Source of the DNA: Bryobacteraceae bacterium
GTDB taxonomy: Bacteria > Acidobacteriota > Terriglobia > Bryobacterales > Bryobacteraceae
Direction: 5' to 3'
DNA: 64,000 nucleotides
Assembly: GCA_026129905.1 (NCBI GenBank)
Contig: JAHCHE010000013.1
Span: 101,475-165,474, forward strand
Each line of letters begins with the position of its first letter. Within the stretch, counting starts at the first letter, position 1. This document shows, piece after piece, positions 4,056-63,737 of this stretch. A program made the translations under genes and the position numbers. The notes beneath the pieces were generated by a model. It was not told where the DNA came from and searched no databases. It saw only the letters and a list, made by a program, of their open reading frames with translations.

Positions 4056-4074
4056 CAGGACGACTTGCACAAAC

Positions 4075-4516: not shown

Positions 4517-4605
4517 CCTTCGCCTGGATTTGATCGCCATCTCCGTATTCTCCCGCTTCGGAGTTCGGATCGTGGCCGGCGCGTGGTGTATACTGGCGGC
4601 TTCCC

Positions 4606-6486
<1,881 letters not shown>

Positions 6487-43829: not shown

Positions 43830-45284
43830 TTGCCCGGCCCTGCTGCGACAACCCCAATCTGGCAGCGGTTCACCCGGCCGGCTGGCCGTGGGGAGGCGCC
43901 CGTCCCTGCGGCGGTTCCGCCGGCGCCTGCGTCTGCTCCGGTCGAGGCCGTACCCTTCAGCCTCTTTCACAAAGCCGGCTTCTTCTCTCTGCTCATCTTC
44001 GTACCCATCGTCTTCAGCCGAATCAACGAGTTCCTCCGCATCCCCAATCTCGTTTTCTCCACCGTCTCCGTCTGCCTCGCCACCAGCATTCTCACCGGCG
44101 CCGCCTATCGCGCCGCCACTTCGCGGCCCGGCAAGCTCCTGCTGTTGTTCACCGTTTGCATCGTCGCTTCCGTTCCGTTCAGCGTTTGGCGAGGCGGCAG
44201 CTATGAGGTCTTAGCCAAAGACTGGGTAATATCCCTCCTGGTCTTCTTCGCCATAGCGGGATCGGTCCACACCTTCGAGCAATGCCGCAAAGCGATGTAT
44301 GCGATGGCGCTCGGCGGGATGCTCATCCTGCTCCTTAGCGTCCGCTTCGGCTCCAGCGCGGCCGGACGCTTCGCCTTCATGTGGGGCACTCTCGGCAATC
44401 CCAACGATTTCGCCACCTATCTCATCATGGGCCTGCCGTTCTGCCTTTTCGTCTTTCTCAACGATACCCGCCTGCCGTTGCGCGCGGTCGCCGCTCTGTC
44501 CGGCCTCGGCATTCTCGTCTACGGCCTTAGGTCCGGTTCGCGCGGCGGCATGGTCGCTCTTGTCGGACTTGTCTTTGTTCTCTTTCTGAAACTCTCCCTG
44601 GCGGACAAATTCAAGCTCCTCGCCGCCGGCGCCCTCGTGTTCCCCGTCGTCCTCGCCCTCGTCCCGCGCGACACCCTCCAGCGGCTCGTCACGTTTGGAA
44701 TCTCCAGCGAGGAGGATCGTGAAGACAACCGTCAGGTCGGTCTTGCCACCTCCTCCTACAATGCCCGCCGCCGCCTCATGCAGGACGCCATCAAGGTCAC
44801 CCTCCAGAATCCCGTGGTCGGCGTCGGCGCCGGCCAGTTTCAGGTCGCCGCCACCCGGTTGGCGGAAGATCGCGGCATCGTCGCCATGTGGCGCGAAACC
44901 CATAACGGTTATCTGCAGGTTTCCAGCGAGTGCGGCATTCCTGCCCTGCTGATCTACCTCGGCTTATTCGCCTATTGCTTTCGTACCCTTACCGAGCTTC
45001 GCAAAGCCGCCGCTCCGCATCCGGCCCTCGCCACCATATCCAAGATGGCAATGTGCCTGTTCATGGCTACGGCGATTTTCGCCGTCGTCAGTCTCTTCGG
45101 CAGCTACGGCTATACCATGCTCCTGCCCGTTCTGTGCGCGTTCACGTATGTCCTTCAAACTACTGCGGAGCCCGTCATTCGCGCTGCGTTGGCGTCGTCT
45201 CCCCCCGCACCGAATGTCCCTTCAGGTCCACTGCCGCCGCGAGCCCGTCCATTGATGCCTCGATTGCCCCTAATGAGGTTCTGA
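43830..45284 (+). CDS. O-antigen ligase / Wzy-like polymerase family membrane protein (TTG start with GGAGG SD)
   Basis: Polytopic; O-antigen-ligase-like region 'AALSGLGILVYGLRSGSRGGMVALVGLVFVLFL...NPVVGVGAGQFQV...HNGYLQV'. Confidence 0.7.
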   Translation: MPGPAATTPIWQRFTRPAGRGEAPVPAAVPPAPASAPVEAVPFSLFHKAGFFSLLIFVPIVFSRINEFLRIPNLVFSTVSVCLATSILTGAAYRAATSRPGKLLLLFTVCIVASVPFSVWRGGSYEVLAKDWVISLLVFFAIAGSVHTFEQCRKAMYAMALGGMLILLLSVRFGSSAAGRFAFMWGTLGNPNDFATYLIMGLPFCLFVFLNDTRLPLRAVAALSGLGILVYGLRSGSRGGMVALVGLVFVLFLKLSLADKFKLLAAGALVFPVVLALVPRDTLQRLVTFGISSEEDREDNRQVGLATSSYNARRRLMQDAIKVTLQNPVVGVGAGQFQVAATRLAEDRGIVAMWRETHNGYLQVSSECGIPALLIYLGLFAYCFRTLTELRKAAAPHPALATISKMAMCLFMATAIFAVVSLFGSYGYTMLLPVLCAFTYVLQTTAEPVIRAALASSPPAPNVPSGPLPPRARPLMPRLPLMRF

Positions 45285-45285
45285 T

Positions 45286-47223
45286 ATGTGTGGAATTGCT
45301 GGCTTCGTCAAGGGTGAAGGCGACTCCGGCGCCGCCCGCGTCATTGCTCGCATGACGGATGTGATCCGCCACCGCGGGCCGGACGATAGCGGAACCTATG
45401 AGGACGCGTGGGTTGCGCTAGGCCATCGCCGCCTGAGTATCATCGACCTTGCCGCCGGCCACCAGCCGATGGAAAACGAGGATGGTTCCGCCTGGATCGT
45501 TTTCAACGGCGAGATCTTCAACCATGCCGACCTTCGCGCTGAACTGGAGCGCCTCGGCCATCGCTTTCGCACCCGCTGCGATACCGAAACCATCCTGCAT
45601 GCCTACGAAGAGTACGGCCCCGCATGCCTCGATCGCTTGCGCGGCATGTTCGCCTTCGCCGTCTGGGACCGCGACGCCCGCACGCTGTTCTGCGCCCGCG
45701 ACCGGCTCGGAAAGAAGCCCCTCTATTACGTCTGGGACGGACGCCGCTTCGCGTTCGCCTCGGAGATCAAGGCCCTCCTGCAGCACCCCGACCTCGCCGC
45801 TTCACTTGACGCCTCCGTCCTCCCCGAGTACCTGAGCCTCGGCTACTCTTGCGACGATCGGACTCTGTTTCGCGGCATCCGTAAGTTGATGCCGGGACAT
45901 TACCTCATCCTCCGCTGCTCCGCGGAAGGCCCTTCCCTCGAAACCAGCGCTTACTGGGACCTCCCGTTTCCGGATCCGCCCGAGCTCCGCTCGGACGAGT
46001 CCTGGATCGAAGAGTGCCGCCTGCGCCTCGAAGACGCCGTCAGCACCCGCCTGATGAGCGATGTTCCCCTCGGCGTTTTCCTGAGCGGCGGCGTGGATTC
46101 CAGCGCTATCACCGCCGTCATGAAGCGCATCGTTGCGGGTCCTGTCAAGTCCTTCTCCGTGGGCTACGCCGAAACGGCTTACAGCGAGTTGTCCTACGCC
46201 CGCCGCGTGGCGCAACATCTCGGCGTCGACTATCACGAAGTCCTCATCTCCCGGGACGATTTCTTCCGCGCCCTCCCCAGCCTCATCTGGCACGAGGATG
46301 AGCCGATCGTCTGGCCCTCCAGCGTCTCTCTCTACTACGTGTCCAGGCTCGCCGCCGAACAAGTGAAGGTCGTCCTTACCGGCGAAGGCGGAGACGAGTT
46401 GTTCGCAGGCTATGCTCGTTACCGTCGCCACGCCTTGAATGAACGGTTGCGGCCCGCCTTTCGCCTCCTTCCGTCCGCGCTCAGGAACCGGATCCGAAAC
46501 TGGATCGTTGCCTCGAACCTCCTTTCGGCCGGCCTCCGCCGAAAACTCGGCCACACCCTGCTCGGTCGCGAAGATAACCTCGAATCCCTCTACCTCGACA
46601 ACTTCTACTCGGCTTTCCCCCGCAACGGCCGCGAGCGTCTCCTCCAAAACGGCGCCGCCCCCCCTTACAACAACTTCCTCGCCTACTGGAGCCGCGAACC
46701 CCGGCGCTCCCTTCTCGAGCGAATGTTGTACGCCGACCAGAAAACCTATCTGGTCGAACTCCTGATGAAGCAGGACCAGATGAGCATGGCGACCTCCATT
46801 GAGTCCCGCGTCCCGCTCCTTGATCATCTGTTCGTTGAGTTCGCCGCTCGGGTCCCCCAGAGCCTCAAACTCCGTAACGGCGGCGGCAAGCGCATTCTCA
46901 AGAAGGCCGTCGAAGATCTCCTTCCTCAAGACATCCTCTACCGAAAGAAGATGGGATTCCCCACCCCCTTGCGCGCGTGGCTCCAGCATCCCGACGCGGG
47001 CTGGGTCGCGTCCACCCTCCTCCGTCCCGACAGCCTCCTCGGCGATTATCTCGACTTGAACGCCGTACGTTCGCTCCTCGAACGCCACCAGAGCGGCGCC
47101 GAGGACGCCACCGACTCCATCTGGCGCCTCCTCAACCTGCAGCTTTGGGGCGACGTCTTCCTCAGCGACGGCGTGGCGCCGCAGTTCGAACAGCGTTTCG
47201 CCCCTCTGCCGGTTTTCTTGTAG
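45286..47223 (+). CDS. asnB: Asparagine synthase (glutamine-hydrolysing), exosortase-locus-associated amidotransferase
   Basis: Starts 'MCGIAGF' (Cys2 nucleophile); 'LSGGVDSSAI' PP-loop; 645 aa. Confidence 0.9.
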   Translation: MCGIAGFVKGEGDSGAARVIARMTDVIRHRGPDDSGTYEDAWVALGHRRLSIIDLAAGHQPMENEDGSAWIVFNGEIFNHADLRAELERLGHRFRTRCDTETILHAYEEYGPACLDRLRGMFAFAVWDRDARTLFCARDRLGKKPLYYVWDGRRFAFASEIKALLQHPDLAASLDASVLPEYLSLGYSCDDRTLFRGIRKLMPGHYLILRCSAEGPSLETSAYWDLPFPDPPELRSDESWIEECRLRLEDAVSTRLMSDVPLGVFLSGGVDSSAITAVMKRIVAGPVKSFSVGYAETAYSELSYARRVAQHLGVDYHEVLISRDDFFRALPSLIWHEDEPIVWPSSVSLYYVSRLAAEQVKVVLTGEGGDELFAGYARYRRHALNERLRPAFRLLPSALRNRIRNWIVASNLLSAGLRRKLGHTLLGREDNLESLYLDNFYSAFPRNGRERLLQNGAAPPYNNFLAYWSREPRRSLLERMLYADQKTYLVELLMKQDQMSMATSIESRVPLLDHLFVEFAARVPQSLKLRNGGGKRILKKAVEDLLPQDILYRKKMGFPTPLRAWLQHPDAGWVASTLLRPDSLLGDYLDLNAVRSLLERHQSGAEDATDSIWRLLNLQLWGDVFLSDGVAPQFEQRFAPLPVFL

Positions 47224-47225
47224 GG

Positions 47226-48341
47226 ATGGCTGCCATCGTCTTCTGGTCGTCGCTCGCCGTCGTTCTCTACGTCTATCTCGCCTACCCAGCCCTCCTCAGG
47301 ATTCTGGCCGTCTTCTTTCGTCGCCCGGTCGCCAAAGCCCCCATCCTTCCATCCGTCTCCCTTGTCATTCCCGCCTATAACGAACAGCGCGTCATCGAAG
47401 CCAAGCTCCGCAACGTTCTTTCGGTCGACTACCCAGCGGAAAAGCTCGAAATAGTTGTCGTCTCGGACGGCTCCACCGACGCGACCAATGCCATCGTCGA
47501 AAAATACGCCTCCGCCGGCCGCGTCCGCCTGTTCGCCTTCGCTCAAAACCGCGGCAAAATCGCGGCGCTCAACGACGCGTTTCCCCATCTGCGCGGAGAA
47601 ATCGCCGCCCTTTCCGACGCCTCCAGCATGCTCGCTCCCGATGCCTTGCGCGTTCTCGTCTCCAGCTTCGCCGACCCCTCCGTCGGGGCGGTCAGCGGCC
47701 TCTACCGCGTTCGCCGCCAGCGCGAGGCCGAACTCGGCGAGCAGGAAGGCTTCTACTGGAGTTACGAAAGCTGGCTCAAAACATTGGAGGCGGAACTCGA
47801 CTCCATCCTCGGCGCCCATGGCTCGCTCTACGCCATCCGCACGAAACTCTATCCGTTTCCCGAGCCCGGCGCGATCAACGACGACTACATCATCCCCGTC
47901 CGGATCATCCAAAAGGGATACCGCGCCGTGTATGACACCCGCGCCCTCGCCTACGAAGAAGCGCTCGAGATGACCGGTTTCAAACGTCGCATCCGGATCA
48001 TGACCGGCAATTTCGAGCAGCTCAGCGAGCTTCGTCCTCTAATCTGGCACCCGCGCTGGCTGCCTCTATTCTTCTTTCTGTCTCATAAGGCCGGCCGGCT
48101 GGCTGTCCCCCTGGCCATGCTGGCCCTGTTCGCTTCCAACATCTTCCTCCTGGCCCAGCCGTTCTACCTCGCCGCGTGGATCGCGCAATTGCTTTTCTAC
48201 GGCGTCGTCGTCGTAGGAGCTCTATGGCCCGTGAACTCCCGGCTGCTGCGGCTGCCCTACTACTTCTGCATGATCAACGCGGCGGCCTTCTTCGGGCTTT
48301 ACTACGCTTTGATCGCCCGCCGTAAAATGGCCTGGAAGTAA
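47226..48341 (+). CDS. Family 2 glycosyltransferase (membrane-anchored)
   Basis: 'SLVIPAYNEQRVIEAKL...EIVVVSDGSTD' DxD-type GT2 motifs with C-terminal TM segments. ATG 47226 lies 2 nt after the asnB stop. Confidence 0.85.
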   Translation: MAAIVFWSSLAVVLYVYLAYPALLRILAVFFRRPVAKAPILPSVSLVIPAYNEQRVIEAKLRNVLSVDYPAEKLEIVVVSDGSTDATNAIVEKYASAGRVRLFAFAQNRGKIAALNDAFPHLRGEIAALSDASSMLAPDALRVLVSSFADPSVGAVSGLYRVRRQREAELGEQEGFYWSYESWLKTLEAELDSILGAHGSLYAIRTKLYPFPEPGAINDDYIIPVRIIQKGYRAVYDTRALAYEEALEMTGFKRRIRIMTGNFEQLSELRPLIWHPRWLPLFFFLSHKAGRLAVPLAMLALFASNIFLLAQPFYLAAWIAQLLFYGVVVVGALWPVNSRLLRLPYYFCMINAAAFFGLYYALIARRKMAWK

Positions 48342-48407
48342 GCCGTTATTCGGTTTTTTTCCGAACTGGTTTGCTGTCTTCGCCGTCGTGTGGTCTACTT
48401 GAATTGA

Positions 48408-49307
48408 GTGTCCATTGTCGTCGGCCGTCCCGTTCGGGACGATGCTCCACCTCGTACCGGGGCCCCGTTTGACTGGCCCGTCGTCGCGTGGTTCGCCATC
48501 CTGTTGATCGCCGCCTACGCTCAGGTCCTTTACCGTCTGCTTCAGCAGTGGTGGGCGGACCCCGATATGGGTCACGGCTTCTTTGTCCCCATCATTGCCG
48601 CCGTCATCGCCTGGGGCAGGCGCGATCGACTCCGATCCCTTGCACTGTCCACGAACTGGTGGGGACTGGCGCTCGTCGTGTGGGCGTCCGTCCAGCTCCT
48701 CATAGGCCTTTTGGGCGCCGAACTCTTTCTGACCCGTACCGCATTCCTGATCGCCCTCATCGGCGCCGTGCTCTTTTTGGGTGGCGCTGGACTCGTGCGC
48801 TCGTTGGCTTTCCCGCTGTTCCTGCTGTTCTTCATGGTTCCCATTCCCAAGGTGATCTTCAATCAGGTCGCCCTGCCCCTCCAGTTGCTTGCCAGCAACC
48901 TTGCTGAGGCCTTTCTAGGGGCCATCGGCGTGCCCGTCTTGCGCGAGGGCAATATCCTCGAACTCGCCAGCCAGCGCCTGAACGTCGTCGAAGCGTGCAG
49001 CGGCATTCGCTCGCTGCTGTCGCTTTCGTTTCTCGCCCTCGTCTACGCTTACTTCTTCGATTCCAAACCCTGGATGCGCGCCGTCCTCCTCCTCGCCAGC
49101 GCTCCCATCGCCATCCTCGCCAACGCAGGCCGCGTTGCCATCACCGGCATCCTCAGCGAACGCAATGCCGAACTCGCCGACGGCTTCTTCCACGCCGCCG
49201 AAGGCTGGGTCATTTTCGTTATCTCGCTCGCCGCCCTGTTCCTGGCGCACCGGCTGATTGACGTTTCCATCAACGGAGTCTCGCGTCTTGTTCGCCGTCC
49301 CCGATAG
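48408..49307 (+). CDS. Exosortase (EpsH/XrtA-like)
   Basis: 'WWADPDMGHGFFVPIIAAVIAWGRRDRL...' followed by 8 TM helices. Conserved Cys/Arg region 'ASQRLNVVEACSGIRSLLS...ANAGRVAITGIL'. Confidence 0.85.
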   Translation: MSIVVGRPVRDDAPPRTGAPFDWPVVAWFAILLIAAYAQVLYRLLQQWWADPDMGHGFFVPIIAAVIAWGRRDRLRSLALSTNWWGLALVVWASVQLLIGLLGAELFLTRTAFLIALIGAVLFLGGAGLVRSLAFPLFLLFFMVPIPKVIFNQVALPLQLLASNLAEAFLGAIGVPVLREGNILELASQRLNVVEACSGIRSLLSLSFLALVYAYFFDSKPWMRAVLLLASAPIAILANAGRVAITGILSERNAELADGFFHAAEGWVIFVISLAALFLAHRLIDVSINGVSRLVRRPR

Positions 49308-50846: not shown

Positions 50847-53800
50847 ATGGCTTACAGTATCAACACCAATGTCACATCCTTGCAGGCACAGGATTACCTG
50901 CGGATCAGCTCCGAGTTTCAGAGCAAGACCATCAACCGAGTCACTTCGGGCTTACGCATCATCAGCTCCGGTGACGACGCGGCCGGTCTCGCGATCGCCA
51001 ACAGCCTTCGCTCAGACCGCGCCGTGATTACCCAGGGCGTTCGCAACGCCAACGACGGCTTGTCCACCTTGCAGACCATCGACGGCGGCATCAACAACAT
51101 CTCTCAGTTGCTCGATCGCGCCCGGACCCTCGCCGCCCAGTCGGCCTCGGGTACGTTCTCCGGCAACCGGAACGTGCTGAACAGCGAGTTCGAGAGCGTG
51201 ATCCTGGAAATCGATCGCCAGGCCCAGGCGATCGGCCTCGATCAGGGCGGCAGCTTCGCCAAGAACCTGACCGTATTCATCGGCGGCGGCCGCAGCAATT
51301 CCGGCGTCTCCGAGATTGCCAACGGCTCCCTCTCCGTCGATCTGTCGCAATCCACGGTCGATTCCAAGAGCCTTGGACTCAAAGGCGTGCAGGCGCTCGG
51401 AGCCCCGGGCACCGATATCGGCACGGGCTCCGTTTCCACCAGCGTCGGGCAGATTCTCGCCGATCTGTCCAATCTCAATGACCTCACCACGGCCAACTAC
51501 ACGGTCTTCAAGTTCTACGGACCCGGCTTTGGCGATGGCGACGGCGTCGCGATCTCCGTCAATACGCAGGGCGTCACCGACACCGACACCCTCGTGACCG
51601 CCATCAACGCCGCCATTGAATCGGCTGGAAACGGTGGCTCCACCGCGGCTACGGCCTTTAAGAACGCCAATATTGTGGCCTCCGTCAACACCGACAGCGC
51701 CGGCCGCAAGCAGCTTGCCTTCTCTTCCAGCAGCACCGCCTTCCAGGTCAAAGCCGGCGACAAGATGGCGAACGCCCTCATGGGCAACTTCGGAGTCGGC
51801 GCCACGGGCGCGGATATGTCCACCACGGTGACCGCTGACGTAGCCTCTGCCGCAGGCTCTGCCGCCTTTGGCGCCGCCGGCGCCGGCGACATCGTCTTCC
51901 GTTTCCAGGGCGCCGGCATGACCAGTCCACTGGAATTGACCGTCAGCGTCGCGGCTGCGACCACGGTGGCCGAGGCGATCGCCGACCTGAGCACCCAGGT
52001 GGTAAACAACGCCACCCTGAAGGCCGCCGGGATCAGTCTCACCAGCGCTTCCGCCGGATCCGCTCTCGAATTCACCAGCACTCGTAGCGAACAATTCGAC
52101 GTGCAGGTCAGTAACGACAAACTGAACCATCTTGGATTCGGCTCGTTCCTGGCCGGCGTGAACGCCGCCTTCGACTACGCAAGCATCACCGCTTCCGCCA
52201 ACTACTCCACGGCCTCGGTCGGCTCGGCTACGTTCGAAGTCTCCATCAACGGCGGGGCTTCAAACACAAACGCGATGGTCGTTAACCTCGCGGGAGGCGA
52301 CGCCACCGCCGCCACCGTCAGCGGCACGGATACCGCCTTGACGGTCGATACCACCGGCGGCGCCAACCTGTTCCGACTCGCCGTCGACGGCTCGGTATAT
52401 GCCATCGCGCTGACGGCCAATGCCACCGCCAGCAAGATTACGTTGGCCAACGACATCAACACCGCGGTCGGCGCAACCATCGCCAGCGTCGGCGCCGACG
52501 GCAAACTCGTCCTCGCTTCCACGACCAAGGGCGCCGCCTCCACCATCCAGATCCTCGCTGGCACCGCCAATGCTGTGCTTGGCTTCACGGAAGGGGACGT
52601 CGTCACGGGCGCTTCCCGGTCCGGAGCCAGCGTGGCCGATGCCCTCAATGCGGCCATCGCCGCCGACGCCGAATTGAGCGCCGCGGGCCTGGTGGCGGAC
52701 TTCGGCGTCACCGCCGCCGGCAAAATCAGCATCAACTCCAGCAACGGGACCTACTTCCGCCTGAATACGTTCGGCGACGTGGCGGCCGCCACCGCCATGG
52801 GCACAAAGGCTGCCACCTATGACACCACCGGCGGCAACAACGTGCTGACCATCGCTGTGGACGGCGGCTTGGCCCAAACCGTGACCCTCACCGCCGGCGC
52901 CGCCCGCACGGCCGCCCAGATCGTGCAGGATATCAACGACGCCGACATCGGCGTCACCGCCTCGGTCGTGACGCACGGCGGCGTGAATTTCGTCCAGGTC
53001 GTCTCCGACACCACTGGCGCCGCTTCCTCCCTCGAGTTCGGTGGCACGGCGCGCACCATAATTGGCTTCGCCGCAACCGCCTATGACGGCACGGAAGCCA
53101 ATGCCGGCTATGGCGTGGCAGGCCAGACGTTCGCGGGCAATGTTGCCAGCGCGGCGCCGGCCACCGCCGCTCAGTTCAATGCGGGCGGCTCTCAGGCCAC
53201 CGCGGCGCTTGCTTTCCAGCCCCTGGCCTACGGCAACGACGATCAGACCATCACCATCTCCGCCAACGACAACGCCGGCGTGCAGCAGTCCAAGACGATC
53301 GTCTTGAAAAACGACGGCGCCAGCGATCGCTATGGCCGGAACATCGATCAGGTGCTCGACAAAATCAACGCCGACCTCCAACAGACCAACAACCAGACCT
53401 TGCAGAAGATCGTGGCCGTCAAGGTCAACGACGGCGGCGTGGAGAAGATCCAGTTCCTGAGCTCGCTCGGCGCCTTCCAGGTCTCCATCGGGCAGACCCC
53501 GGACGGCAACGGCATCGGCGCTCAGGGCAGCACGCAGTCGTCGCAGGCCTTGGACGGCGGCAGCGTCGCGGCCATCGATACCCAGGCCGGCGGTGAAGCC
53601 GCCGTCGCCGCGCTCGCCAACGCCGTGGCCGCCCTCGGCGAGGCTCAGGCCGTCGTCGGTAAGGGCCAGAACCGCTTTAACTTCGCCGTCAACCTCGCCC
53701 AGACCCAGCTCAACAACCTGGCGGCGTCGGAATCCCGCATCCGCGACGCCGACCTGGCGCTGGAAGCGGCGAACCTGACCAAAGCCCAGATCATGCAACA

Positions 53801-53870
53801 GGCCGGCATCGCCGCCTTGGCCCAGGCCAATTCGGCGCCGCAGACCGTCCTCAGCCTGCTCCGCGGGTAA
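50847..53870 (+). CDS. Flagellin, giant (1007 aa) with very long Ala/Gly/Thr/Ser-rich variable region
   Basis: Conserved D0/D1 N-terminus (MAYSINTNVTSLQAQDYLRISSEFQSKTINRVTSGLRIISSGDDAAGLAIANSL...) and C-terminus (...QNRFNFAVNLAQTQLNNLAASESRIRDADLALEAANLTKAQIMQQAGIAALAQANSAPQTVLSLLRG). About 700 aa of insert lie between them. Confidence 0.9.
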   Translation: MAYSINTNVTSLQAQDYLRISSEFQSKTINRVTSGLRIISSGDDAAGLAIANSLRSDRAVITQGVRNANDGLSTLQTIDGGINNISQLLDRARTLAAQSASGTFSGNRNVLNSEFESVILEIDRQAQAIGLDQGGSFAKNLTVFIGGGRSNSGVSEIANGSLSVDLSQSTVDSKSLGLKGVQALGAPGTDIGTGSVSTSVGQILADLSNLNDLTTANYTVFKFYGPGFGDGDGVAISVNTQGVTDTDTLVTAINAAIESAGNGGSTAATAFKNANIVASVNTDSAGRKQLAFSSSSTAFQVKAGDKMANALMGNFGVGATGADMSTTVTADVASAAGSAAFGAAGAGDIVFRFQGAGMTSPLELTVSVAAATTVAEAIADLSTQVVNNATLKAAGISLTSASAGSALEFTSTRSEQFDVQVSNDKLNHLGFGSFLAGVNAAFDYASITASANYSTASVGSATFEVSINGGASNTNAMVVNLAGGDATAATVSGTDTALTVDTTGGANLFRLAVDGSVYAIALTANATASKITLANDINTAVGATIASVGADGKLVLASTTKGAASTIQILAGTANAVLGFTEGDVVTGASRSGASVADALNAAIAADAELSAAGLVADFGVTAAGKISINSSNGTYFRLNTFGDVAAATAMGTKAATYDTTGGNNVLTIAVDGGLAQTVTLTAGAARTAAQIVQDINDADIGVTASVVTHGGVNFVQVVSDTTGAASSLEFGGTARTIIGFAATAYDGTEANAGYGVAGQTFAGNVASAAPATAAQFNAGGSQATAALAFQPLAYGNDDQTITISANDNAGVQQSKTIVLKNDGASDRYGRNIDQVLDKINADLQQTNNQTLQKIVAVKVNDGGVEKIQFLSSLGAFQVSIGQTPDGNGIGAQGSTQSSQALDGGSVAAIDTQAGGEAAVAALANAVAALGEAQAVVGKGQNRFNFAVNLAQTQLNNLAASESRIRDADLALEAANLTKAQIMQQAGIAALAQANSAPQTVLSLLRG

Positions 53871-54034: not shown

Positions 54035-55990
54035 ATGTCCGTCATACCGGAGCTGTTGGATTGTGCGGTCGCGCACCACAAGGCCGGCCGTTTCGCCGAA
54101 GCCGAGGGCCTCTACCGCAGAGTTCTGACCATCGAGCCGCGCCACGCCGATTCACACCACCTCCTGGGCCTGCTCGCCGGAGAAGCCGGCAACTACCCCC
54201 TCGCCGTCGCCTGCATCGGCCGCGCGATTCAATTCAAGCCCTGGGAGCCGCTCTACTATCGCAATCTGGGCCTGGCGCTGCATCGGGACCAAAGGTATGA
54301 GCAGGCGATTATCTGCTATTCCAAGGCGATCGAGCTGGAGCCCAACCACGCCGAAACCCTCCTCCGCATGGGCCGCTCCCTCGCCGCCCGCGGCTTGCTC
54401 GACGACGCCATCCAGTTGTTCCTCCATGCCCGGCGCCTTGCGCCTAACGAGCCAAATGCCCACCTCGATCTCGGCCTCGCCTTCGCCCGGACGGGGAAGC
54501 TTGACGAAGCGGCCGCCAGTTTCGGCGAGGCGCTCTGGTTGCGGCCCAACGACCCCCAGGCCGCTTTCGAACTCGGCAACTCCCTCCATATGTTGGATCG
54601 CCTTGTCGAAGCCGAACAGGCATACCGCCGGGTGGTGGCTCTGGAACCCCGGCATCCGGACGCCTGGTTCAACCTCGGCGTGACTCTCTCTCGTCGGAGT
54701 TCCTTCCTCGAAGCCATCGCCGCCTATGAGGCTGCCTTGGAAATCAGGCCATCCCACGCGGCCGCCCATAACAACCTGGCGAACCTCCGCCAGGCCCAGG
54801 GCAAACTCGACGAGGCGATCGCCGGCTACCAGGCGGCGCTCCGGCTGGAGCCGGCCAACCTCGATACCCGTTACAATCTCGGCCTCGCCTTCCAGGAGCG
54901 GTTCCGCTTTGATGAAGCGCTCGACGCCTACGACGATGTCCTCTCGCATCAGCCGGACCACGTCGAGGCCCAGAACAATCGCGCCAATACGCTGCTGGCC
55001 CTGGGACGCCCGCGCGAGGCCGTCGAAGGCTATACCCTCGCCATCCGCCGGCAACCAGATCATCTCGAGGCCAACTTCAACCGGGGCATCGCGCGACTCC
55101 TCCTCGGCAATTTCGCCGAGGGCTGGCAAGGCTACGAGTGGCGCTCCCGCCAAACGAATGCCCCTCGTCGCGACTTTGAGCAGCCACTCTGGGATGGCGA
55201 GCCCCTTACGACCCAGACTCTGCTCGTCCACGCGGAACAGGGCCTCGGCGACGCCATCCAGTTTGTTCGATACCTCCCGCTCGTCAGGGAAAGGTGCGCG
55301 CGCGTCTTTTTCGAATGCCAGCCCCGCCTTGTCCCGCTCTTCGCCGGCCTCTCCTCTATCGATGGCCTGATCGCCCGGGGTTCGCCGCTGCCGGATTTCG
55401 ATTTCCATATCCCCTTGATGAGCTTGCCGCGCGTCTTCGAAACAACGCTGGAGACAATTCCCTCCGATACCCCTTACCTCGCCATCAATCCGGACCTCGT
55501 CGGCTATTGGCGCCGGCGGATTGGTTTCCCGGGGCGCCGCAAGATCGGCCTCGTGTGGGGCGGCAACGCCGGCTTCAAGAATGAGCTGCGCCGCGGCCTG
55601 CCCCTCGAGACGTTCCGGCCCCTGGCCGCCCTCCGCGACGTCGCCCTGTTCAGCCTTCAGCGCGGACCGCAGGCACGTCAGCTCGAAGCTCTCCCCCCCG
55701 GCATGAAGGTCCATCATCTCGAGCCCGAGGAGAATCAGATCACCGATACGGCCGCCATCCTCCACGTTCTCGACCGAGTGATCACCGTCGATACGATGGT
55801 CGCTCACCTCGCCGGCGCCCTGGCCCGGCCGGTCTGGACCTTGCTGTCCTTCGCGCCCGACTGGCGATGGCTTCTCGATCGTCCCGACAGCCCCTGGTAC
55901 CCCACCATGCGCCTGTTCCGCCAGCCGCGCGAGGGGGACTGGGAGACCGTTGTGCATCGGGTTGCCGCGGAACTCAAAACCGGCTGTTGA
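54035..55990 (+). CDS. TPR-repeat protein with C-terminal GT9 (heptosyltransferase-fold) glycosyltransferase domain; FlmG-like candidate flagellin glycosyltransferase
   Basis: About 10 TPR units (AYRRVLTIEPRHADSHHLLG..., AIICYSKAIELEPNHAET...). Then 'LLVHAEQGLGDAIQFVRYLP...IGLVWGGN...TVDTMVAHLAGALARPVWTLL', typical of GT9 ADP-heptose transferase-like domains. Confidence 0.65.
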   Translation: MSVIPELLDCAVAHHKAGRFAEAEGLYRRVLTIEPRHADSHHLLGLLAGEAGNYPLAVACIGRAIQFKPWEPLYYRNLGLALHRDQRYEQAIICYSKAIELEPNHAETLLRMGRSLAARGLLDDAIQLFLHARRLAPNEPNAHLDLGLAFARTGKLDEAAASFGEALWLRPNDPQAAFELGNSLHMLDRLVEAEQAYRRVVALEPRHPDAWFNLGVTLSRRSSFLEAIAAYEAALEIRPSHAAAHNNLANLRQAQGKLDEAIAGYQAALRLEPANLDTRYNLGLAFQERFRFDEALDAYDDVLSHQPDHVEAQNNRANTLLALGRPREAVEGYTLAIRRQPDHLEANFNRGIARLLLGNFAEGWQGYEWRSRQTNAPRRDFEQPLWDGEPLTTQTLLVHAEQGLGDAIQFVRYLPLVRERCARVFFECQPRLVPLFAGLSSIDGLIARGSPLPDFDFHIPLMSLPRVFETTLETIPSDTPYLAINPDLVGYWRRRIGFPGRRKIGLVWGGNAGFKNELRRGLPLETFRPLAALRDVALFSLQRGPQARQLEALPPGMKVHHLEPEENQITDTAAILHVLDRVITVDTMVAHLAGALARPVWTLLSFAPDWRWLLDRPDSPWYPTMRLFRQPREGDWETVVHRVAAELKTGC

Positions 55991-56999: not shown

Positions 57000-58835
57000 G
57001 TGAATATGGAACTCGCGTCTCACGATGCCGCGCTGAACCGGCGCGGTAACCTCGGCGGTTTTCCCCTGCCGTCCCTCGTCTCCAGGGTCCAGCCGCTGCT
57101 TAAGAAAGTCCTTCTTGTCGACCGGCTAAACGCTGCTTATGCCGAGGCCAAGGCCGGGACCGAAGGCGGTGAAGTCTTCCGTAGGATGCTCGACGCCGCC
57201 CGCGTTTCCTATGACGTCGATCCGCGCGATCTCGCCAAGATCCCGCCGGCCGGTCCCGTCGTCGCCGTCGCCAATCACCCCTTCGGGATCGTCGAAGGCG
57301 CGATACTCGCCTCTCTGCTTTCGCGCGTTCGTTCCGACGTCCGGATCATGACCAACTTCCTGGTCTCCTCCATCGCCGCCGTCGAACCCGTCGACCTCTT
57401 CCTCTGGGTCGATCCCTTCGGCGGCCCCAATTCGGTGCTCGCCAACCGCCGCCCCCTCCGCGCGGCCGTCGACTGGGTCCGCCAAGGCGGCATGCTCGTC
57501 GCCTTCCCTGCCGGCGAAGTCGCCCACTTCGATCTCCGCTCGCGCCGCGTTGTCGACCGCGCTTGGAACCGCTCCATCTCCGGCCTGATCCGCCTCTCCC
57601 AAGCCTCGGCGCTGCCTGTCTTTTTCCATGGCGCCAATAGCGTCCCGTTTCACCTCGCCGGCCTCCTGCATCCCTCCCTCCGCACGCTTTGTCTTGCGCG
57701 CGAGTTCTTCAACAAACGCGGCCGTCGGATCCCCGTCCGCGTCGGCGACGAAATCCCGTTCCAGCGGCTCGCCAAATTCTCCGACGACTGTGAGATGACA
57801 GACTACCTCTACCGGCGCACCTTCCTCCTGGCCAACCGCGCCGAGGCCTCCCCGTCCCGCTCGTTGCCTCGCCGCCTTCCGCCCATTGCGGCGCCGGAGG
57901 ACTCCGCCACCCTCGCCGCCGAAGTTGCCCGCCTGTCCCCGGACGAGGAACTCGCCGCACTCAGCGGCTATGCCGTCTATTGCGCTCGCGCCTCGCGAGT
58001 CCCGGCTCTCCTCCGCGAAATCGGAAGGCTTCGCGAGATCTCCTTCCGCGCCGTCGGCGAAGGCGTCGGCCGTCCCGCCGATCTGGACTCGTTCGACACG
58101 GATTACGAGCACCTCTTCCTCTGGAATCGCGAGCGCAACGAGGTTGTTGGCGCCTACCGCATCGCGCCCGTCGATCGGATCGTCGCGGACCGCGGCTTGT
58201 CGGGGCTCTATACCAGCACCCTCTTCGAGTTCCGCCCGGACTTCTTTCGGAAACTCGGTCCCGCCGTCGAATTGGGCCGATCGTTCGTCAGGCCCGAGTA
58301 TCAGCGCAGTTTCGCTCCCCTCATGATGCTTTGGAAAGGCGTCTGCGCTTGGCTGGTTCGCCACCCCGCATACCACGTGCTTTTCGGAGCCGTCAGCATC
58401 AGCGACAACTATTGCGCCGCTTCCCGGCAGTACATGGTTCAGTTTCTCAGGACCAGGTGCCTTTCTTCGGAACTGGCCGGCCTCGTCAGGGCTAGGAGTG
58501 GCTTCAAGTTAACTCCGCCCCGCGATTGGGAGGTTCACCTTAACAGCAACTTCGTCAACGATATCGAGGACCTTTCCTCCCTGATCACCGATCTCGAGCA
58601 CGATCGCAAAGGCGTGCCCATACTCGTCAGGCAGTACTTGAAACTCGGTGGCCGGCTGATCGACTTCAACCTCGACCCAGACTTTTCTCGCGCCCTCGAC
58701 GGCCTGATTGTCGTGGATCTTCTGAAGACGGATCGCTGCATCCTGGAACGCTACATGGGAAAGGATAACGCCACCCGCTTCTTCCTCCATCACCTATCCC
58801 CCGCCGGCGGCCACACACAGACTCAACCCGGCTAG
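57000..58835 (+). CDS. Bifunctional acyltransferase: N-terminal PlsC/LPLAT-like O-acyltransferase + C-terminal GNAT/OlsB-like N-acyltransferase (OlsF-like ornithine-lipid synthase candidate)
   Basis: N-domain 'VVAVANHPFGIVEGAILASL...VAFPAGEV' (HX4-5[D/E] plus a PEG-like motif). C-domain has the OlsB/hemolysin-like GNAT fold ('YEHLFLWNRERNEVVGAYRI...'). GTG start at 57000. Confidence 0.55.
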   Translation: MNMELASHDAALNRRGNLGGFPLPSLVSRVQPLLKKVLLVDRLNAAYAEAKAGTEGGEVFRRMLDAARVSYDVDPRDLAKIPPAGPVVAVANHPFGIVEGAILASLLSRVRSDVRIMTNFLVSSIAAVEPVDLFLWVDPFGGPNSVLANRRPLRAAVDWVRQGGMLVAFPAGEVAHFDLRSRRVVDRAWNRSISGLIRLSQASALPVFFHGANSVPFHLAGLLHPSLRTLCLAREFFNKRGRRIPVRVGDEIPFQRLAKFSDDCEMTDYLYRRTFLLANRAEASPSRSLPRRLPPIAAPEDSATLAAEVARLSPDEELAALSGYAVYCARASRVPALLREIGRLREISFRAVGEGVGRPADLDSFDTDYEHLFLWNRERNEVVGAYRIAPVDRIVADRGLSGLYTSTLFEFRPDFFRKLGPAVELGRSFVRPEYQRSFAPLMMLWKGVCAWLVRHPAYHVLFGAVSISDNYCAASRQYMVQFLRTRCLSSELAGLVRARSGFKLTPPRDWEVHLNSNFVNDIEDLSSLITDLEHDRKGVPILVRQYLKLGGRLIDFNLDPDFSRALDGLIVVDLLKTDRCILERYMGKDNATRFFLHHLSPAGGHTQTQPG

Positions 58836-60334: not shown

Positions 60335-61135
60335 CTACTTCACCGTCTGGTCGGGCGACATGCCGAGCTTCTCATATAGCTTCCTCCTGCCCTCTTTGTC
60401 GCCTTCGAGGATGATGTAGGCCAGTTTCGCGACCTCTTCGGCTACCTCCCGCGGCACAACCACCACGCCGTCGCCGTCGGCCACGATCACGTCGCCCGGC
60501 CGGACCATGACGCCGCCGCACATGATCGGCCGGTTGACGGATTCCACTTCGTTGCGGCCGGGACGAATGCCCCGAGCGGGCCGCTTGTAGTAGAGCGGGA
60601 CTTGCTGCTTGATCACTTCATCCGTATCCCGCGCCCCTCCGCTGGTGACGACGCCAACCGCGCCTCGCGTCTTCCACCCCAGGATATTGTTCGAGCCGAT
60701 CGTACCGGTGTCGCCGTCCTCGCCCCCGTCAATCACCACGACCGACCCTTTGCGGAGGTACTTCGTGAACGGTTCTGGGGAGAGCTTGCCATACCAATCG
60801 CCTTCCCACTTGCGGAATTCGTCCGGCGTCATCTTGCCAACGCGCCGGTTGGTCGGCAAATAGCGGACCGTAACCGCGATGCCGGCGAACTTGTGCCGCA
60901 TCTCGTCGGTATCGCGCCACAGCGGGCGGATCGCGGGATCCATCAGCCCGACGTCCTGTAGGCCCACCATGTCCAAGCCGTCGGAAACGTCGGCGACCCG
61001 CAGCGGTTCGTACAGCTTCAGGATCTTCTCGTCTTCTTCTTGCGTGTATGTCCTGAATTGGATGAACTGGTCCTGGGCCGCCATCAGGCCGGGGAAAACG
61101 CACAGCGCAAGCGCCGCGAACTGTTGACCTCGCAT
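60335..61135 (-). CDS. RraA-family protein (RNase E inhibitor / HMG-CHA aldolase fold) with signal peptide
   Basis: 'GSVVVIDGGEDGDTGTIGSNNILGW...GDVIVADGDGVVVVPRE' matches RraA/MenG-like family motifs. Confidence 0.65.
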   Translation of the reverse strand: MRGQQFAALALCVFPGLMAAQDQFIQFRTYTQEEDEKILKLYEPLRVADVSDGLDMVGLQDVGLMDPAIRPLWRDTDEMRHKFAGIAVTVRYLPTNRRVGKMTPDEFRKWEGDWYGKLSPEPFTKYLRKGSVVVIDGGEDGDTGTIGSNNILGWKTRGAVGVVTSGGARDTDEVIKQQVPLYYKRPARGIRPGRNEVESVNRPIMCGGVMVRPGDVIVADGDGVVVVPREVAEEVAKLAYIILEGDKEGRRKLYEKLGMSPDQTVK

Positions 61136-61265: not shown

Positions 61266-62564
61266 GTGAGCCGGGAAGTCTTCATCAGCCACTCCTCCGC
61301 CGACCGCGCCCTCGCTGAGCGAGCTTGCCGCGCGCTGGAGGATCGCGGCATTCCATGCTGGATCGCCCCGCGAAACATCGCGCTCAGCAGAGGCTGGCCG
61401 GAGGAAATTACAAAGGCCATCGATCGCTGCGCAGCGATGGTGGTGCTGATATCGTCACGCTCCAACGCCTCCAGGCACGTGGCGAAAGAACTAAACCAAG
61501 CCGACCGGCGGAACATTCCGATCTACCCGCTTCGCGTCGAACCGGTAGAGCCCTCGACAAGTCTGCGCTACGCTCTCGGGGAAAGCCAGTGGCTGGATGC
61601 GTTCGACGAGCCGAGGGAGCCGGTTCTGACCCGGCTCGTCGAGGCCATCGTCGGCGCGCTGCCGGAACCGCCGCCAACGCCCCCAGGCGGTAGCGAGGCT
61701 CTCTCGGAGAGGCTGTCGCGCGCGCGTGGTTCGCGGCGCCGGTATGCATGGATTGCCGCGGCGCTGCTCGCCATCGGTGCCGCCGCAGTATTGGTGGGGC
61801 CGAAACTGTCGTCCAGGATTGCGGGACCGGTCTACGTGAGCATACCTCGGGGCTCATTCATTATGGGCTGCTCTCCAGGCGATTCGGAGTGTCGAGAGGA
61901 CGAGGTTCCCGGCCACACCGTGACGATCAGCCGGCCATTCCAAATCGGCCGGACAGAAGTAACCGTGAACGAGTACCGCCGGTTTTGCCTGCAAGCCGGC
62001 TGCACGCCTCCGCCGCCGGACCTTGCGGGCGACCTCCCGGTGGTGGACGTGACGTGGGAAGACGCCGACGCGTACTGCCGCTGGGCCGGAGGACGGCTGC
62101 CGACCGAAGCCGAATGGGAGTACGCGGCTCGCGGCGGAACCACCACCGCTCGCTATGGCTCGCTGGACGACATCGCCTGGTACGGCCGCAACGCGGGCCG
62201 CAACTACCTCGATACGGGACCGTGGGAACTCAATCCAGCCAACTATGAAACCCGGCTGAAGGAGAACGGCAACCGTCCTCAACCCGTGGGAAAAAAGCAG
62301 GCCAACCGCTTCGGCTTGTACGACATGCTCGGCAACGTATGGGAGTGGTGTTCCGACTGGTACGACCCGGCCTACTACAGCCGCAGTCCTGCCAGCGACC
62401 CCGTCGGACCCGAGAGCGGAGACAGGAAAGTGTTTCGTGGCGGCTCCTGTCAGAATTTCCCCCCGAATGTGCGGGTCTCCAGGCGCTACCCGGGCGTTCT
62501 GCCGAGCGGCGCGCGCCGGGGCGCGGATGTCGGCTTCCGGTGCGTCCTGCCCGCCCAGCCCTAA
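61266..62564 (+). CDS. TIR domain - single TM - FGE-sulfatase (SUMF1/DUF323) domain protein
   Basis: N-terminus 'VFISHSSADRALAERACRALEDRGIPCWIAPRNI...AAMVVLISSRSNASRHVAKELNQA' is a TIR fold. A TM helix 'RRRYAWIAAALLAIGAAAVLVGPK' follows (positive-inside, so TIR is cytoplasmic). FGE-sulfatase motifs follow: 'GHTVTISRPFQIGRTEVTVNEY', 'RLPTEAEWEYAARGG', 'YDMLGNVWEWCSDWY', 'RGGS'. Confidence 0.8.
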   Translation: MSREVFISHSSADRALAERACRALEDRGIPCWIAPRNIALSRGWPEEITKAIDRCAAMVVLISSRSNASRHVAKELNQADRRNIPIYPLRVEPVEPSTSLRYALGESQWLDAFDEPREPVLTRLVEAIVGALPEPPPTPPGGSEALSERLSRARGSRRRYAWIAAALLAIGAAAVLVGPKLSSRIAGPVYVSIPRGSFIMGCSPGDSECREDEVPGHTVTISRPFQIGRTEVTVNEYRRFCLQAGCTPPPPDLAGDLPVVDVTWEDADAYCRWAGGRLPTEAEWEYAARGGTTTARYGSLDDIAWYGRNAGRNYLDTGPWELNPANYETRLKENGNRPQPVGKKQANRFGLYDMLGNVWEWCSDWYDPAYYSRSPASDPVGPESGDRKVFRGGSCQNFPPNVRVSRRYPGVLPSGARRGADVGFRCVLPAQP

Positions 62565-62618: not shown

Positions 62619-63737
62619 ATGCGCCGATTTCTTAAGCCTTCGTTCAACTGGTTGCTGATTCTCGTCCCCGCGAGCCTCGCTTGCGAATTTCTGGCGCCCG
62701 GGAACCACGTCCTGCTCTTCGCGCTGGCCGCCCTGGCCATCGTTCCCCTGGCCGGCTGGATGGGCCGCGCCACGGAACACCTGGCGCATCACACCAGCGA
62801 GGGCGTCGGCGGTCTGCTGAACGCCACGTTCGGCAACGCCGCCGAGCTAATCATCGCGCTGATGGCGCTGCGCGGCGGCCTGCACGACGTGGTGAAAGCT
62901 TCACTCACCGGATCGATTATTGGCAACGTACTGCTGGTGATGGGCGCCGCCTTCGCGGCGGGCGGCCTGCGCCACAAGACCCAGACGTTTCATGAGGGAG
63001 GCGCCCGCATTCAATCCACGATGATGACGCTCGCCACTATCGCGCTCATCCTGCCCGCCGCCTTCCACCACCTCGGCGGAGCGGAGGTGCAGGCCCGGGA
63101 AAGCGGCTTGAGCTTGGAGATCGCCGTCGTCATGCTAGTGACCTACGGCCTCGGACTGGTGTTCACGCTCCACACCCACCGGCATTTCTTCTCGGGCCAC
63201 ATGCGAGAAGGGTCGGCGGAGGTTCACGGGACGGGCCAACCATGGCCGCTCGGCCGCAGTTTGGCGACGCTCGGCGTGAGCACCGCCTTCATCGCGTGGA
63301 TGAGCGAAATCCTGGTCGGGTCGGTTGAGCCGGCGGGCAAGGAACTCGGCCTCAGCAGCCTGTTTGTCGGCGTCGTGGTCGTCGCGGTAATCGGCAACGC
63401 CGCCGAGCACAGCACCGCGATCCTCATGGCCATGAAGGACCGCATGGACCTGAGCCTCGGCATCGCGATGGGCAGCAGCATCCAGGTGGCGCTGTTCGTC
63501 GCCCCCGCGCTGGTCCTTGCCAGCTACGGCATCGCGGACCGGCCCATGGACCTCGTCTTCACGCCGATCGAAATTCTGGCCGTTTTCGCTGCCGTCATCA
63601 TCGGCAACGAGATCGCCCGCGACGGCGAGTCCAACTGGCTGGAAGGCGTACAGTTGCTGGCGGTGTATCTGCTGCTGGCCATCGTCTTCTATTTCATGCC
63701 GGAATCCGCCGCGCATGTTTCCCCGCTGGCGGGCTAA
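62619..63737 (+). CDS. Ca2+/H+ antiporter (CAX/ChaA family)
   Basis: Two alpha-repeat signatures 'GNAAELIIALMALRGG' and 'GNAAEHSTAILMA' within 11 TM segments. Confidence 0.85.
   Translation: MRRFLKPSFNWLLILVPASLACEFLAPGNHVLLFALAALAIVPLAGWMGRATEHLAHHTSEGVGGLLNATFGNAAELIIALMALRGGLHDVVKASLTGSIIGNVLLVMGAAFAAGGLRHKTQTFHEGGARIQSTMMTLATIALILPAAFHHLGGAEVQARESGLSLEIAVVMLVTYGLGLVFTLHTHRHFFSGHMREGSAEVHGTGQPWPLGRSLATLGVSTAFIAWMSEILVGSVEPAGKELGLSSLFVGVVVVAVIGNAAEHSTAILMAMKDRMDLSLGIAMGSSIQVALFVAPALVLASYGIADRPMDLVFTPIEILAVFAAVIIGNEIARDGESNWLEGVQLLAVYLLLAIVFYFMPESAAHVSPLAG

Follow-up and report, generated by a model that had tools for sequence, protein, structure and literature searches.

The stretch analysed here, hereafter the window, comprises 64,000 nucleotides from a Bryobacteraceae bacterium of the Acidobacteriota (GenBank assembly GCA_026129905.1, contig JAHCHE010000013.1, positions 101,475 to 165,474 of the forward strand) and carries near its end a gene in which a TIR domain, a transmembrane (TM) helix and a formylglycine-generating enzyme (FGE)-sulfatase domain, of the type also termed FGS, are joined. 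The open reading frame (ORF) at 61266..62564 (+) is a complete coding sequence of 432 amino acids (aa) with a GTG start and a TGA stop; its N-terminus, MSREVFISHS, lines up with the Met starts of homologues, and both Pfam domains lie inside it. The exact protein has no record in the public protein collection. The predicted cytoplasmic TIR domain, of the 'FISHS...CWIAPRD...NxSxxxxxE' clade, spans aa 5-115 (61278..61610, +) and is recognised by Pfam TIR_2 (PF13676; E 1.3e-22; 80.9 bits, cut-off 28) as well as by the clade profile, with a predicted local distance difference test score (pLDDT) of ~90 in the AlphaFold model. Within it, alignments mark the codon of Glu75 (61488..61490, +) as that of the putative catalytic glutamate. 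A helical, Pro-rich linker follows (aa 116-159; 61611..61742, +), with AlphaFold helices at aa 118-131 and 142-152 and pLDDT <50 at aa 141-157, ending in the Arg cluster RARGSRRR that stands out in the Lys/Arg (K/R) count. The single TM helix (aa 160-181, core 160-178; 61743..61808, +) leads to the FGE-sulfatase domain at aa 190-427 (61833..62546, +; Pfam E 6e-56; 190 bits, cut-off 23.3), whose pLDDT lies mostly between 70 and 94 and which is predicted to be extracytoplasmic and of C-type-lectin fold. Two parts of this domain deserve mention, namely a 27-residue insert at aa 311-337, GRNYLDTGPWELNPANYETRLKENGNR (62196..62276, +), carried by part of the family only, and aa 393-423, GSCQNFPPNVRVSRRYPGVLPSGARRGADVG (62442..62534, +), which corresponds to the variable region (VR) of diversity-generating retroelement (DGR) targets and would form the ligand-binding surface. 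Taken together, we propose that the gene encodes a single-pass membrane protein of a widespread, receptor-like family of bacterial TIR proteins, plausibly an outside-in sensor and not a one-off.

The order of domains given by the initial annotation, with one TM helix between the TIR and FGE-sulfatase domains, is borne out by Pfam and by hydropathy. The sole hydrophobic segment is YAWIAAALLAIGAAAVLVG (aa 160-178; Kyte-Doolittle (KD) score 2.12), all other 19-mers scoring at most 1.5. AlphaFold places a helix over it, at aa 157-176, flanked by low-confidence linkers, and 12 homologues show a hydrophobic segment at the matching position. The 15 residues before the helix (ALSERLSRARGSRRR) contain six K/R, all of them Arg, against two in the 15 residues after it, and the N-terminus has no signal-like hydrophobic stretch (maximum KD 0.04). 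The same asymmetry is found across the family: in 58 single-TM proteins with the same type of TIR domain, a mean of 3.22 K+R residues before the helix contrasts with 1.76 beyond it, the N-terminal flank being the richer in 43 proteins and the poorer in 6 (Wilcoxon p=1.7e-7). Furthermore, the TM-FGE module recurs, at 50-56% identity, behind N-terminal Ser/Thr kinases (P0088, P0115 and P0116) and in a zinc-ribbon protein (P0119), whose N-terminal domains must be cytoplasmic. Given the lack of a signal peptide, the charge bias of the protein and of its family, and the joining of TM-FGE to cytoplasmic kinases and a zinc ribbon, a topology with TIR inside and FGE outside is well supported as a prediction, and the positive-inside orientation first proposed is thus upheld, with the two domains predicted on opposite sides of the membrane.

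The TIR region as a single sequence gave no match in a search of the PDB, and a clade profile was required. The profile built from 20 sequences (alignment A2) matches the solved TIR domains of TIR-STING (1.6e-12), Cat1 (1.3e-11), PdTIR (2.4e-10) and AbTIR (2.7e-10). Glu75 lines up with the Glu of AbTIR 'TEYEL', PdTIR 'PQKEL' and Cat1 'WDEL', and also with that of TIR-STING; in AbTIR, PdTIR and Cat1 we take this residue to be the one that serves TIR NADases as catalytic glutamate, on helix alpha-C. No exception to E75 occurs among the 20 relatives of A2 or among 49 clade representatives at most ~50% identical (alignment A3). In the latter set F6, S8, D13, C31-W32, A34, R36, N67, S69, A79, P88 and W109 are invariant as well, and the CWxAPR motif is conserved without change alongside E75, N67 and S69. 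The glutamate on which the initial annotation had made its reading depend is therefore present and fixed in the clade.

The fold of the ectodomain was approached through structure and sequence comparison. Foldseek relates the domain to FGE (E 8.5e-19, TM-score (target) 0.66), to PvdO (2.3e-16) and to Treponema TvpA (6.5e-12), and homology to TvpA, a DGR variable protein (PDB 2Y3C), is also apparent from sequence (E 1.4e-19). The copper-binding pair of catalytic cysteines of FGE (C-x4-C after RGGS) is not present in the alignment of the window protein. Where the Streptomyces coelicolor FGE has 'GGSYLCHDSYCNRYR', the window protein reads 'GGS--CQ-NFPPNVRV'; the first catalytic Cys aligns with C395, at a position occupied by Trp in the family consensus RGGSWxxxPxxVRVSxR, and the second aligns with Pro. 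Since the Cys pair is missing, we reject a true formylglycine-generating enzyme and consider the ectodomain a predicted 'FGS' module of C-type-lectin fold, a binder rather than an enzyme. A ligand-binding or a modifying module had been envisaged at the outset; the binder survives, in the form of a lectin-type domain, and the modifying enzyme falls with the catalytic cysteines. FGS domains have been proposed to act as invader-sensing lectin modules placed C-terminally to effectors, TIR among them (PMC7159879, PMC8195603). Nowhere in the FGE domain does the family alignment vary more than in the VR-equivalent segment (1.69 vs 1.07 bits). The insert at aa 311-337 (pLDDT low, about 51-64) is shared by P0015-17, the soluble TIR+FGE group and the FGE domains linked to kinases and zinc ribbons, and is absent from nine TM-bearing TIR relatives. 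Public records name the homologues P0001-P0120 'formylglycine-generating enzyme required for sulfatase activity', 'sulfatase modifying factor 1' or 'SUMF1/EgtB/PvdO family nonheme iron enzyme'. With neither catalytic cysteine of FGE retained as a pair in the family consensus, this naming probably represents a systematic over-annotation.

How widely the fusion occurs was assessed in the best 120 matches from 5.8 billion clusters, which include at least 22 full-length TIR+FGE proteins at 37-48% identity. The fusion is thus found many times over in other genomes. Among the matches listed, the nearest FGE domains and full-length relatives belong to Acidobacteriota (Terriglobia, Bryobacterales). 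Thirteen TIR+FGE proteins in alignment A1, that of the window included, have a hydrophobic segment between the domains and nine do not, so the sensor-out design put forward in the initial annotation applies to the TM subclade and not to the fusion as such. Identity to the window protein is uniform over the FGE domain (48-59%) but split over the TIR domain, at 37-47% in the TM group and 23-29% in the soluble group. This pattern indicates that related FGE modules joined different TIR subfamilies more than once, and the TIR+FGE fusion would be a product of modular shuffling and not of one ancient event. The soluble P0074/99/104/114 clade shows Ala at the E75 column, but since its sequences have a canonical 'CWGIEM' four residues earlier, the Glu has probably been misaligned locally rather than lost.

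The TIR domain alone leads to a much larger set. A word-index homologue search with it returned 15 proteins only, and we used an exhaustive HMMER search instead, which yielded 26,562 representative clusters (E<=1e-3). We then took a census of the 88 closest proteins with one N-terminal TIR domain (43-50% identity). A hydrophobic segment follows the TIR domain in 55 of them, and exactly one segment in 48; it usually lies at residues ~150-200, with another 100-600 residues behind it, and P0125, P0130, P0132 and P0134 are merely tail-anchored TIRs. When 49 TIR-TM proteins were compared with Pfam, most had nothing recognisable beyond the TIR domain; FGE-sulfatase was found in four, TPR in three and Sel1 in two, and kinase, caspase, thioredoxin, WD40 and trypsin occurred once each. 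From this census, 'TIR inside, one TM helix, variable ectodomain' appears to be a general design of which the window gene is one instance. Paralogue arrays that combine the same TIR with different sensors exist at two loci (L003 and L004). At L003 (549-3123), the tandem TIR-TM-FGE paralogues P0060 and P0072 lie 4 bp apart, between a tryptophan operon and F420-biosynthesis genes. We found no paper on a TIR-TM-variable-ectodomain class, and a literature query for bacterial FGE-sulfatase plus TIR gave none. A survey of E. coli TIR defence lists one TIR+TM system and comments that bacterial TIR systems seem to have no TLR-like membrane features (PMC11350192); with a TM segment in 55/88 of the nearest TIR representatives, our census contrasts with that remark. 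Many bacterial TIR proteins, hardly studied so far, are thus predicted to be single-pass with varied ectodomains, among which lectin domains of the FGE type recur and in some relatives are diversified by retroelements. Recognising this membrane-anchored class, together with the likely FGE mis-annotation, would be the most valuable outcome of the present analysis.

The homology to TvpA and the presence of a bAvd gene after P0046, a TIR-TM-FGE protein, prompted us to look for DGRs. In the 64 kb of the window, blastn detects no second copy of the 3' end of the gene, and there are no homologues of the reverse transcriptase (RT), Avd or template repeat (TR) of the DGR at locus L010 (best E 0.09-3); a local DGR is thus rejected. 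The related FGE loci gave a different picture, with a TR/VR-like second copy in 10/84. One of them is L010 itself, in a Bryobacteraceae metagenome-assembled genome (JBEKMJ010000094.1, 1-6410), where a complete DGR cassette is accompanied by three targets. The first, placed before bAvd, is a 634-aa FGE-domain protein with an N-terminal region that, judged by eye, is NACHT-like; bAvd (1907-2371), the RT (2029-3444) and an AAC-rich TR at ~3500-3625, encoding FNNDTRNLRAANGNRNAPDNRNNNIGFR, follow, and then two TIR-FGE proteins, of which the one at 3813-5162 has a probable TM segment and the one at 5166-6410 is soluble. The mismatches are adenine-specific, 17 falling where the TR has A. The first of these two TIR-FGE targets has a moderately hydrophobic interdomain stretch, RRWAPGGVSLAGLVFAGYLIFGPPMGRK (KD 1.56), and may be a membrane-anchored hypervariable TIR receptor. 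Residues 393-423 of the window protein are homologous to the VR/TR scaffold of L010, RGGSFNNDTRNLRAANGNRNAPDNRNNNIGFRC, and to the divergent tails of the repeats in P0042. The latter, a 727-aa metagenome protein sourced from NCBI, is soluble and carries two FGE repeats behind its TIR domain; the repeats match exactly for ~180 residues and differ only in the last ~35, a pattern that reads as the signature of tandem DGR variable regions.

Less complete arrangements were also encountered. The array at L004 (5851-9522) consists of a TIR-WD40 protein, P0046 and an orphan bAvd whose product is 70% identical to the L010 Avd; neither an RT nor a TR is found within this 17-kb locus, and the orphan Avd is possibly the remnant of a decayed or split DGR. 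No template repeat was found at L001 or L004. A second VR-like 3' copy, at 69-89% identity, occurs in L016, L020, L027, L028, L029, L039, L067, L079 and L082, which come from diverse phyla, and L016, L039, L067 and L082 carry RT and Avd homologues in addition; judging from these repeats, all nine are likely DGR loci. A pattern scan of genome contigs, made with FGE-internal patterns, recovered mostly generic FGE proteins, and its full-length matches were L009 and L010 only. Nearer to the window protein the tail is stable. In the 90%-identity clusters of the TM subclade, 0/6, 0/2 and 2/49 variable columns fall in the tail, and the tail of the soluble P0074-type clade is almost fixed. Ongoing tail hypervariation is rejected on these grounds for near-identical relatives in the TM subclade, and the apparent excess in the P0114 cluster is due to one aberrant member, P0163. 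In our reading, the predicted ligand-binding surface is the one that DGRs mutate elsewhere, and since no DGR accompanies the window gene its specificity would be fixed and germline-encoded.

In this context, the nearest published parallels are the predicted effector-FGS conflict systems of Kaur, Burroughs, Iyer and Aravind (eLife 2020, PMC7159879; eLife 2021, PMC8195603). They share with the window protein a C-terminal FGS domain and another domain N-terminal to it, in what has been called a 'strict architectural syntax'; TIR is listed among the partners, and the FGS domain is read as a non-enzymatic sensor of invader molecules. They differ in having a STAND NTPase or MoxR-vWA ternary core and in being mostly cytoplasmic ('intracellular invader-sensing'), cyanobacterial and DGR-linked, whereas here a stand-alone TIR domain is joined to FGS by a TM helix in an Acidobacteriota-like genome with no DGR, no NTPase domain in the protein and no vWA/MoxR partner among the neighbours scanned. 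FGS domains are reported to stand always C-terminal to effector or signalling domains (TIR, caspase, kinase, STAND NTPase) and to be often DGR-diversified (PMC7159879, PMC8195603, PMC10907252, PMC3501461, PMC13581612, bioRxiv 10.1101/2025.01.12.632604). Proteins in which a TIR, caspase, kinase or STAND domain precedes an FGS sensor are known from earlier work, and in some of them TM segments bring the lectin domain into the periplasm (PMC7159879, PMC8195603, PMC10907252, PMC3501461). The statement that the arrangement is not a catalogued defence layout is thus half right. The TIR domain draws only weak, generic matches from PADLOC (SAVED_TIR 1.8e-9, ThsB 4e-6), but the effector-FGS layout is already present in comparative genomics, and TIR-TM-FGS seems best classed, from its architecture, as a variant of it. 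The variable proteins of DGRs (TvpA, PDB 2Y3C; L010) share the fold and a homologous C-terminal RGGS...GFRC scaffold, and among the multidomain DGR targets of Thiohalocapsa PB-PSB1 some have TIR or CHAT domains and TM segments placing the lectin domain in the periplasm (PMC10907252). The window locus differs from these in having no RT, Avd or template repeat in the window and relatives in the TM subclade free of tail hypervariation. The Ser/Thr kinase-TM-FGE and metacaspase-(TM)-FGE proteins (bioRxiv 10.1101/2025.01.12.632604; PMC3501461) have the TM+FGE module and an N-terminal cytoplasmic output in common with the window protein, the output domain being a kinase or a caspase there and TIR here.

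With the bacterial TIR NADases and signal generators (AbTIR, PdTIR, ThsB, Cat1, TIR-SAVED, TIR-APAZ) the window protein has in common its TIR fold and a catalytic-position Glu; it differs in being membrane-anchored with an ectodomain and in carrying His (Gln in the clade) for the Trp of WxxxE. Near the gene there is no partner of the known systems (ThsA, CD-NTase, Argonaute, CRISPR), and system-specific models score far under their thresholds, as do the NCBIfam retron-TIR and ThcB4 models (15 bits vs 220 for ThcB4). Membership in Thoeris is rejected, with no adjacent ThsA, weak ThsB matches, and RraA-like, CAX, pectate-lyase-like and OlsF genes as neighbours. The likeness to Toll-like receptors (TLR) stressed in the initial annotation holds for the single TM helix and the cytoplasmic TIR domain, as predicted. 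TLR and interleukin-1 (IL-1) receptors likewise cross the membrane once, with a binding domain outside the cell and TIR in the cytoplasm, and clustering induced by a ligand is a natural model of activation for both. However, a TLR is type I, with its N-terminus outside, a C-terminal TIR domain and an ectodomain of leucine-rich repeats (LRR) or Ig domains, whereas the window protein has its N-terminal TIR domain inside, an FGE fold and no LRRs. The TIR domains of animal TLRs are adaptors, not NADases. The resemblance would then be convergent, a functional analogy that implies no homology beyond the TIR fold.

The explanation that we favour, with a probability of about 0.45, is that the gene encodes a self-contained membrane sensor-effector in which sensing by a periplasmic lectin-fold domain would lead to activation of the TIR domain. 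The TIR domain would face the cytoplasm, where NAD+ is, and the FGS domain the periplasm, where the variable surface near its C-terminus (aa ~393-423) would bind a macromolecule as ligand. Binding would cluster receptors in the membrane and bring their TIR domains together. In characterised TIR enzymes, self-association activates NAD+-cleaving or cyclase activity. TIR-TIR association here may switch on the cleavage or cyclisation of NAD+, resulting in NAD+ depletion or in a signal derived from ADP-ribose, and the role of the protein would be to detect a foreign or envelope-derived macromolecule (phage, competitor, glycan) in biological conflict. Known bacterial TIR systems sense infection inside the cell. 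If the TIR domain does answer an extracytoplasmic ligand, this would be outside-in TIR signalling in bacteria and, if true, would also offer a simple single-gene model for how a TIR enzyme is switched by clustering. More tentatively, and as a possibility that we regard as doubtful at present, the whole TIR-TM-ectodomain clade might consist of transmembrane pattern-recognition receptors that sense phage, competitors or envelope damage at the surface, before or without cytoplasmic invasion, and activate a TIR NADase by clustering. Such proteins would be an independent, polarity-inverted version of the TLR principle, and their DGR relatives, as in L010, would be hypervariable surface receptors.

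A number of observations weigh against the sensor-effector reading. Nine close TIR+FGE relatives have no TM helix, so the FGE domain also works in the cytoplasm, it would seem, and the helix of the window protein may be a mere anchor. The topology is based on hydropathy and charge bias only, and the transfer of a signal across a single TM helix is something that we purely infer. In place of the Trp of the WxxxE motif of AbTIR, PdTIR, Cat1 and TIR-STING there is His71, and Gln in the clade consensus; because of this substitution catalysis as an NAD+ hydrolase or cyclase is plausible but not assured. The genomic context adds to this list. PADLOC matched no model on the five flanking genes, and Pfam scans of 25 window ORFs recovered nothing defence-related, with no MoxR, vWA, STAND, caspase or trypsin. 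Rather than lying in a defence island, the gene is surrounded by genes of envelope or housekeeping type (OlsF, pectate-lyase-like, RraA-like, CAX, exopolysaccharide (EPS)/exosortase, flagellin), and a tblastn comparison of four neighbours with 84 loci found no locus that shares them. Nothing in the gene context points to defence.

The immediate surroundings are as follows. An RraA-like/aldolase gene (60335-61135, -) is divergent from the TIR-FGE gene, and a CAX Ca2+/H+ exchanger (62619-63737, +) follows on the same strand after 54 bp; both are supported by Pfam/NCBIfam, and both had been named correctly from the start. That the gene is monocistronic, as also claimed, is not established, given the short distance to CAX on the same strand and no terminator-like site between the two; the promoter/terminator scan is uninformative in sequence of 65% GC. 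The wider window contains a TPR-GT9 protein, a hydrolase, an OlsF-like lipid synthase and a pectate-lyase-like protein and, further off, GGDEF-PAS, GH3 and FecR-like proteins. In five relatives the contexts are unrelated, among them ilvD/ferredoxin/PTPS/DinG, trp operon-F420, a ParE toxin, and a kinase with a TIR-WD40 paralogue. These contexts, with the 84 loci devoid of synteny, lead us to reject a conserved neighbourhood or partner gene, so that no function can be read from the neighbours. On plasmids, 709 records match the FGE domain only and none is full length. The window protein is a stand-alone unit, and its context speaks neither for nor against a role in defence.

In the main alternative scenario, which we judge rather unlikely, the protein would be a non-immune sensor of the envelope or environment. 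Its ligand would be a glycan or other periplasmic molecule of self or environmental origin (EPS, cell-wall fragments, plant polysaccharide), and the TIR domain would serve physiological regulation, either by synthesising an NAD-derived messenger or as an adaptor that oligomerises. Ordinary signalling architectures, namely Ser/Thr kinase-TM-FGE and zinc-ribbon-TM-FGE, do indeed carry the closest FGE domains (50-56%), and a bacterial Ser/Thr kinase family with a TM/FGE-sulfatase architecture has been catalogued (bioRxiv 10.1101/2025.01.12.632604). The genes for envelope, polysaccharide and ion homeostasis around the window gene, with no defence-island signal, and the fixed binding tail of close relatives, as a constant ligand would predict, fit this view too. 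Yet related FGS fusions are DGR-diversified, as in L010, which fits variable foreign targets, paralogue arrays with varied sensors resemble immune repertoires, and no downstream signalling partner is encoded nearby. To our knowledge, moreover, all characterised bacterial TIR domains act in conflict systems or as NADase toxins or effectors, which also counts against a non-immune role.

The DGR data bear on a further scenario, in which the window gene would be a diversified receptor after all, with its retroelement elsewhere in the genome and aa ~393-423 a true VR fed by a remote template. The tail is homologous to true VR scaffolds, TR/VR pairs accompany the 10/84 related FGE loci, including in L010 a full-length TIR+FGE relative from the same phylum, and just 1.4 kb are visible downstream of the gene; template repeats, besides, may be 'elsewhere in the genome' (PMC7159879). 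Against this stand the 64-kb window, with neither a copy of the 3' end nor an RT, Avd or TR homologue, and the near-identical relatives of the TM subclade, with no excess of variation in the tail. On a qualitative reading, the tail of the window protein is also not enriched in the residues expected of Asn-codon mutagenesis. We therefore regard a remote DGR as improbable.

PvdO is a periplasmic protein of FGE-sulfatase fold without the FGE cysteines. A tethered periplasmic enzyme or maturation factor of the PvdO/NirV/FGE-like kind, with the TIR domain as a cytoplasmic scaffold or regulatory appendage, is accordingly a further alternative, and in our view a very improbable one. PvdO is a structural neighbour of the ectodomain (Foldseek E 2e-16), the NCBIfam PvdO model matches the window protein at E 6e-21, under the equivalog cut-off, and Cys202, Cys271 and Cys426 are invariant in the family. 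All the equivalog scores, however, fall far below their cut-offs (EgtB 87.6 vs 360, SenA 86.3 vs 420, PvdO 74.8 vs 500, GldK 104.3 vs 350), and membership in these NCBIfam families is rejected. A sulfoxide or selenoxide synthase of the EgtB/OvoA/SenA type would also have an N-terminal DinB-like iron-binding domain, and Pfam finds none in the protein; a PvdO or GldK/PorK lipoprotein is rejected as well, the N-terminus being a TIR domain without a signal peptide. In addition to the absent Cys pair, there are no substrate-pathway genes nearby, the former active-site region is the most variable one, the opposite of a conserved active site, and the invariant Glu argues that the TIR domain is the functional output. 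An inactive relic, or something not yet considered, takes the remainder of the probability.

Other genes of the window show features of their own. The RraA-like protein encoded at 60335-61135 (-) starts with MRGQQFAALALCVFPGLMAAQDQ, which resembles a secretion signal peptide and is unexpected, the RraA-like family being usually regarded as cytoplasmic. At 384-4055 (+) a 1223-aa protein has PAS and GGDEF domains in its last 300 residues only, its first ~900 being without a Pfam match. A polysaccharide/exosortase cluster at 43830-49307 (+) comprises a Wzy_C O-antigen-ligase-like protein, an asparagine synthase, a GT2 glycosyltransferase and the exosortase EpsH. The OlsF-like bifunctional acyltransferase at 57000-58835 (+; Acyltransf_2 + GNAT) reaches 397 bits, short of the 620 that NCBIfam requires for an OlsF equivalog, and would thus be a divergent ornithine- or amino-lipid synthase. 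Finally, a 1007-aa flagellin is encoded at 50847-53870 (+), in which ~800 residues without a Pfam match separate Flagellin_N (aa 5-126) from Flagellin_C (aa 922-1005). The gene after it, at 54035-55990 (+), specifies a TPR protein of 651 aa that matches glycosyltransferase-9 weakly. The former looks like a 'giant flagellin', and the latter is possibly its modification enzyme.

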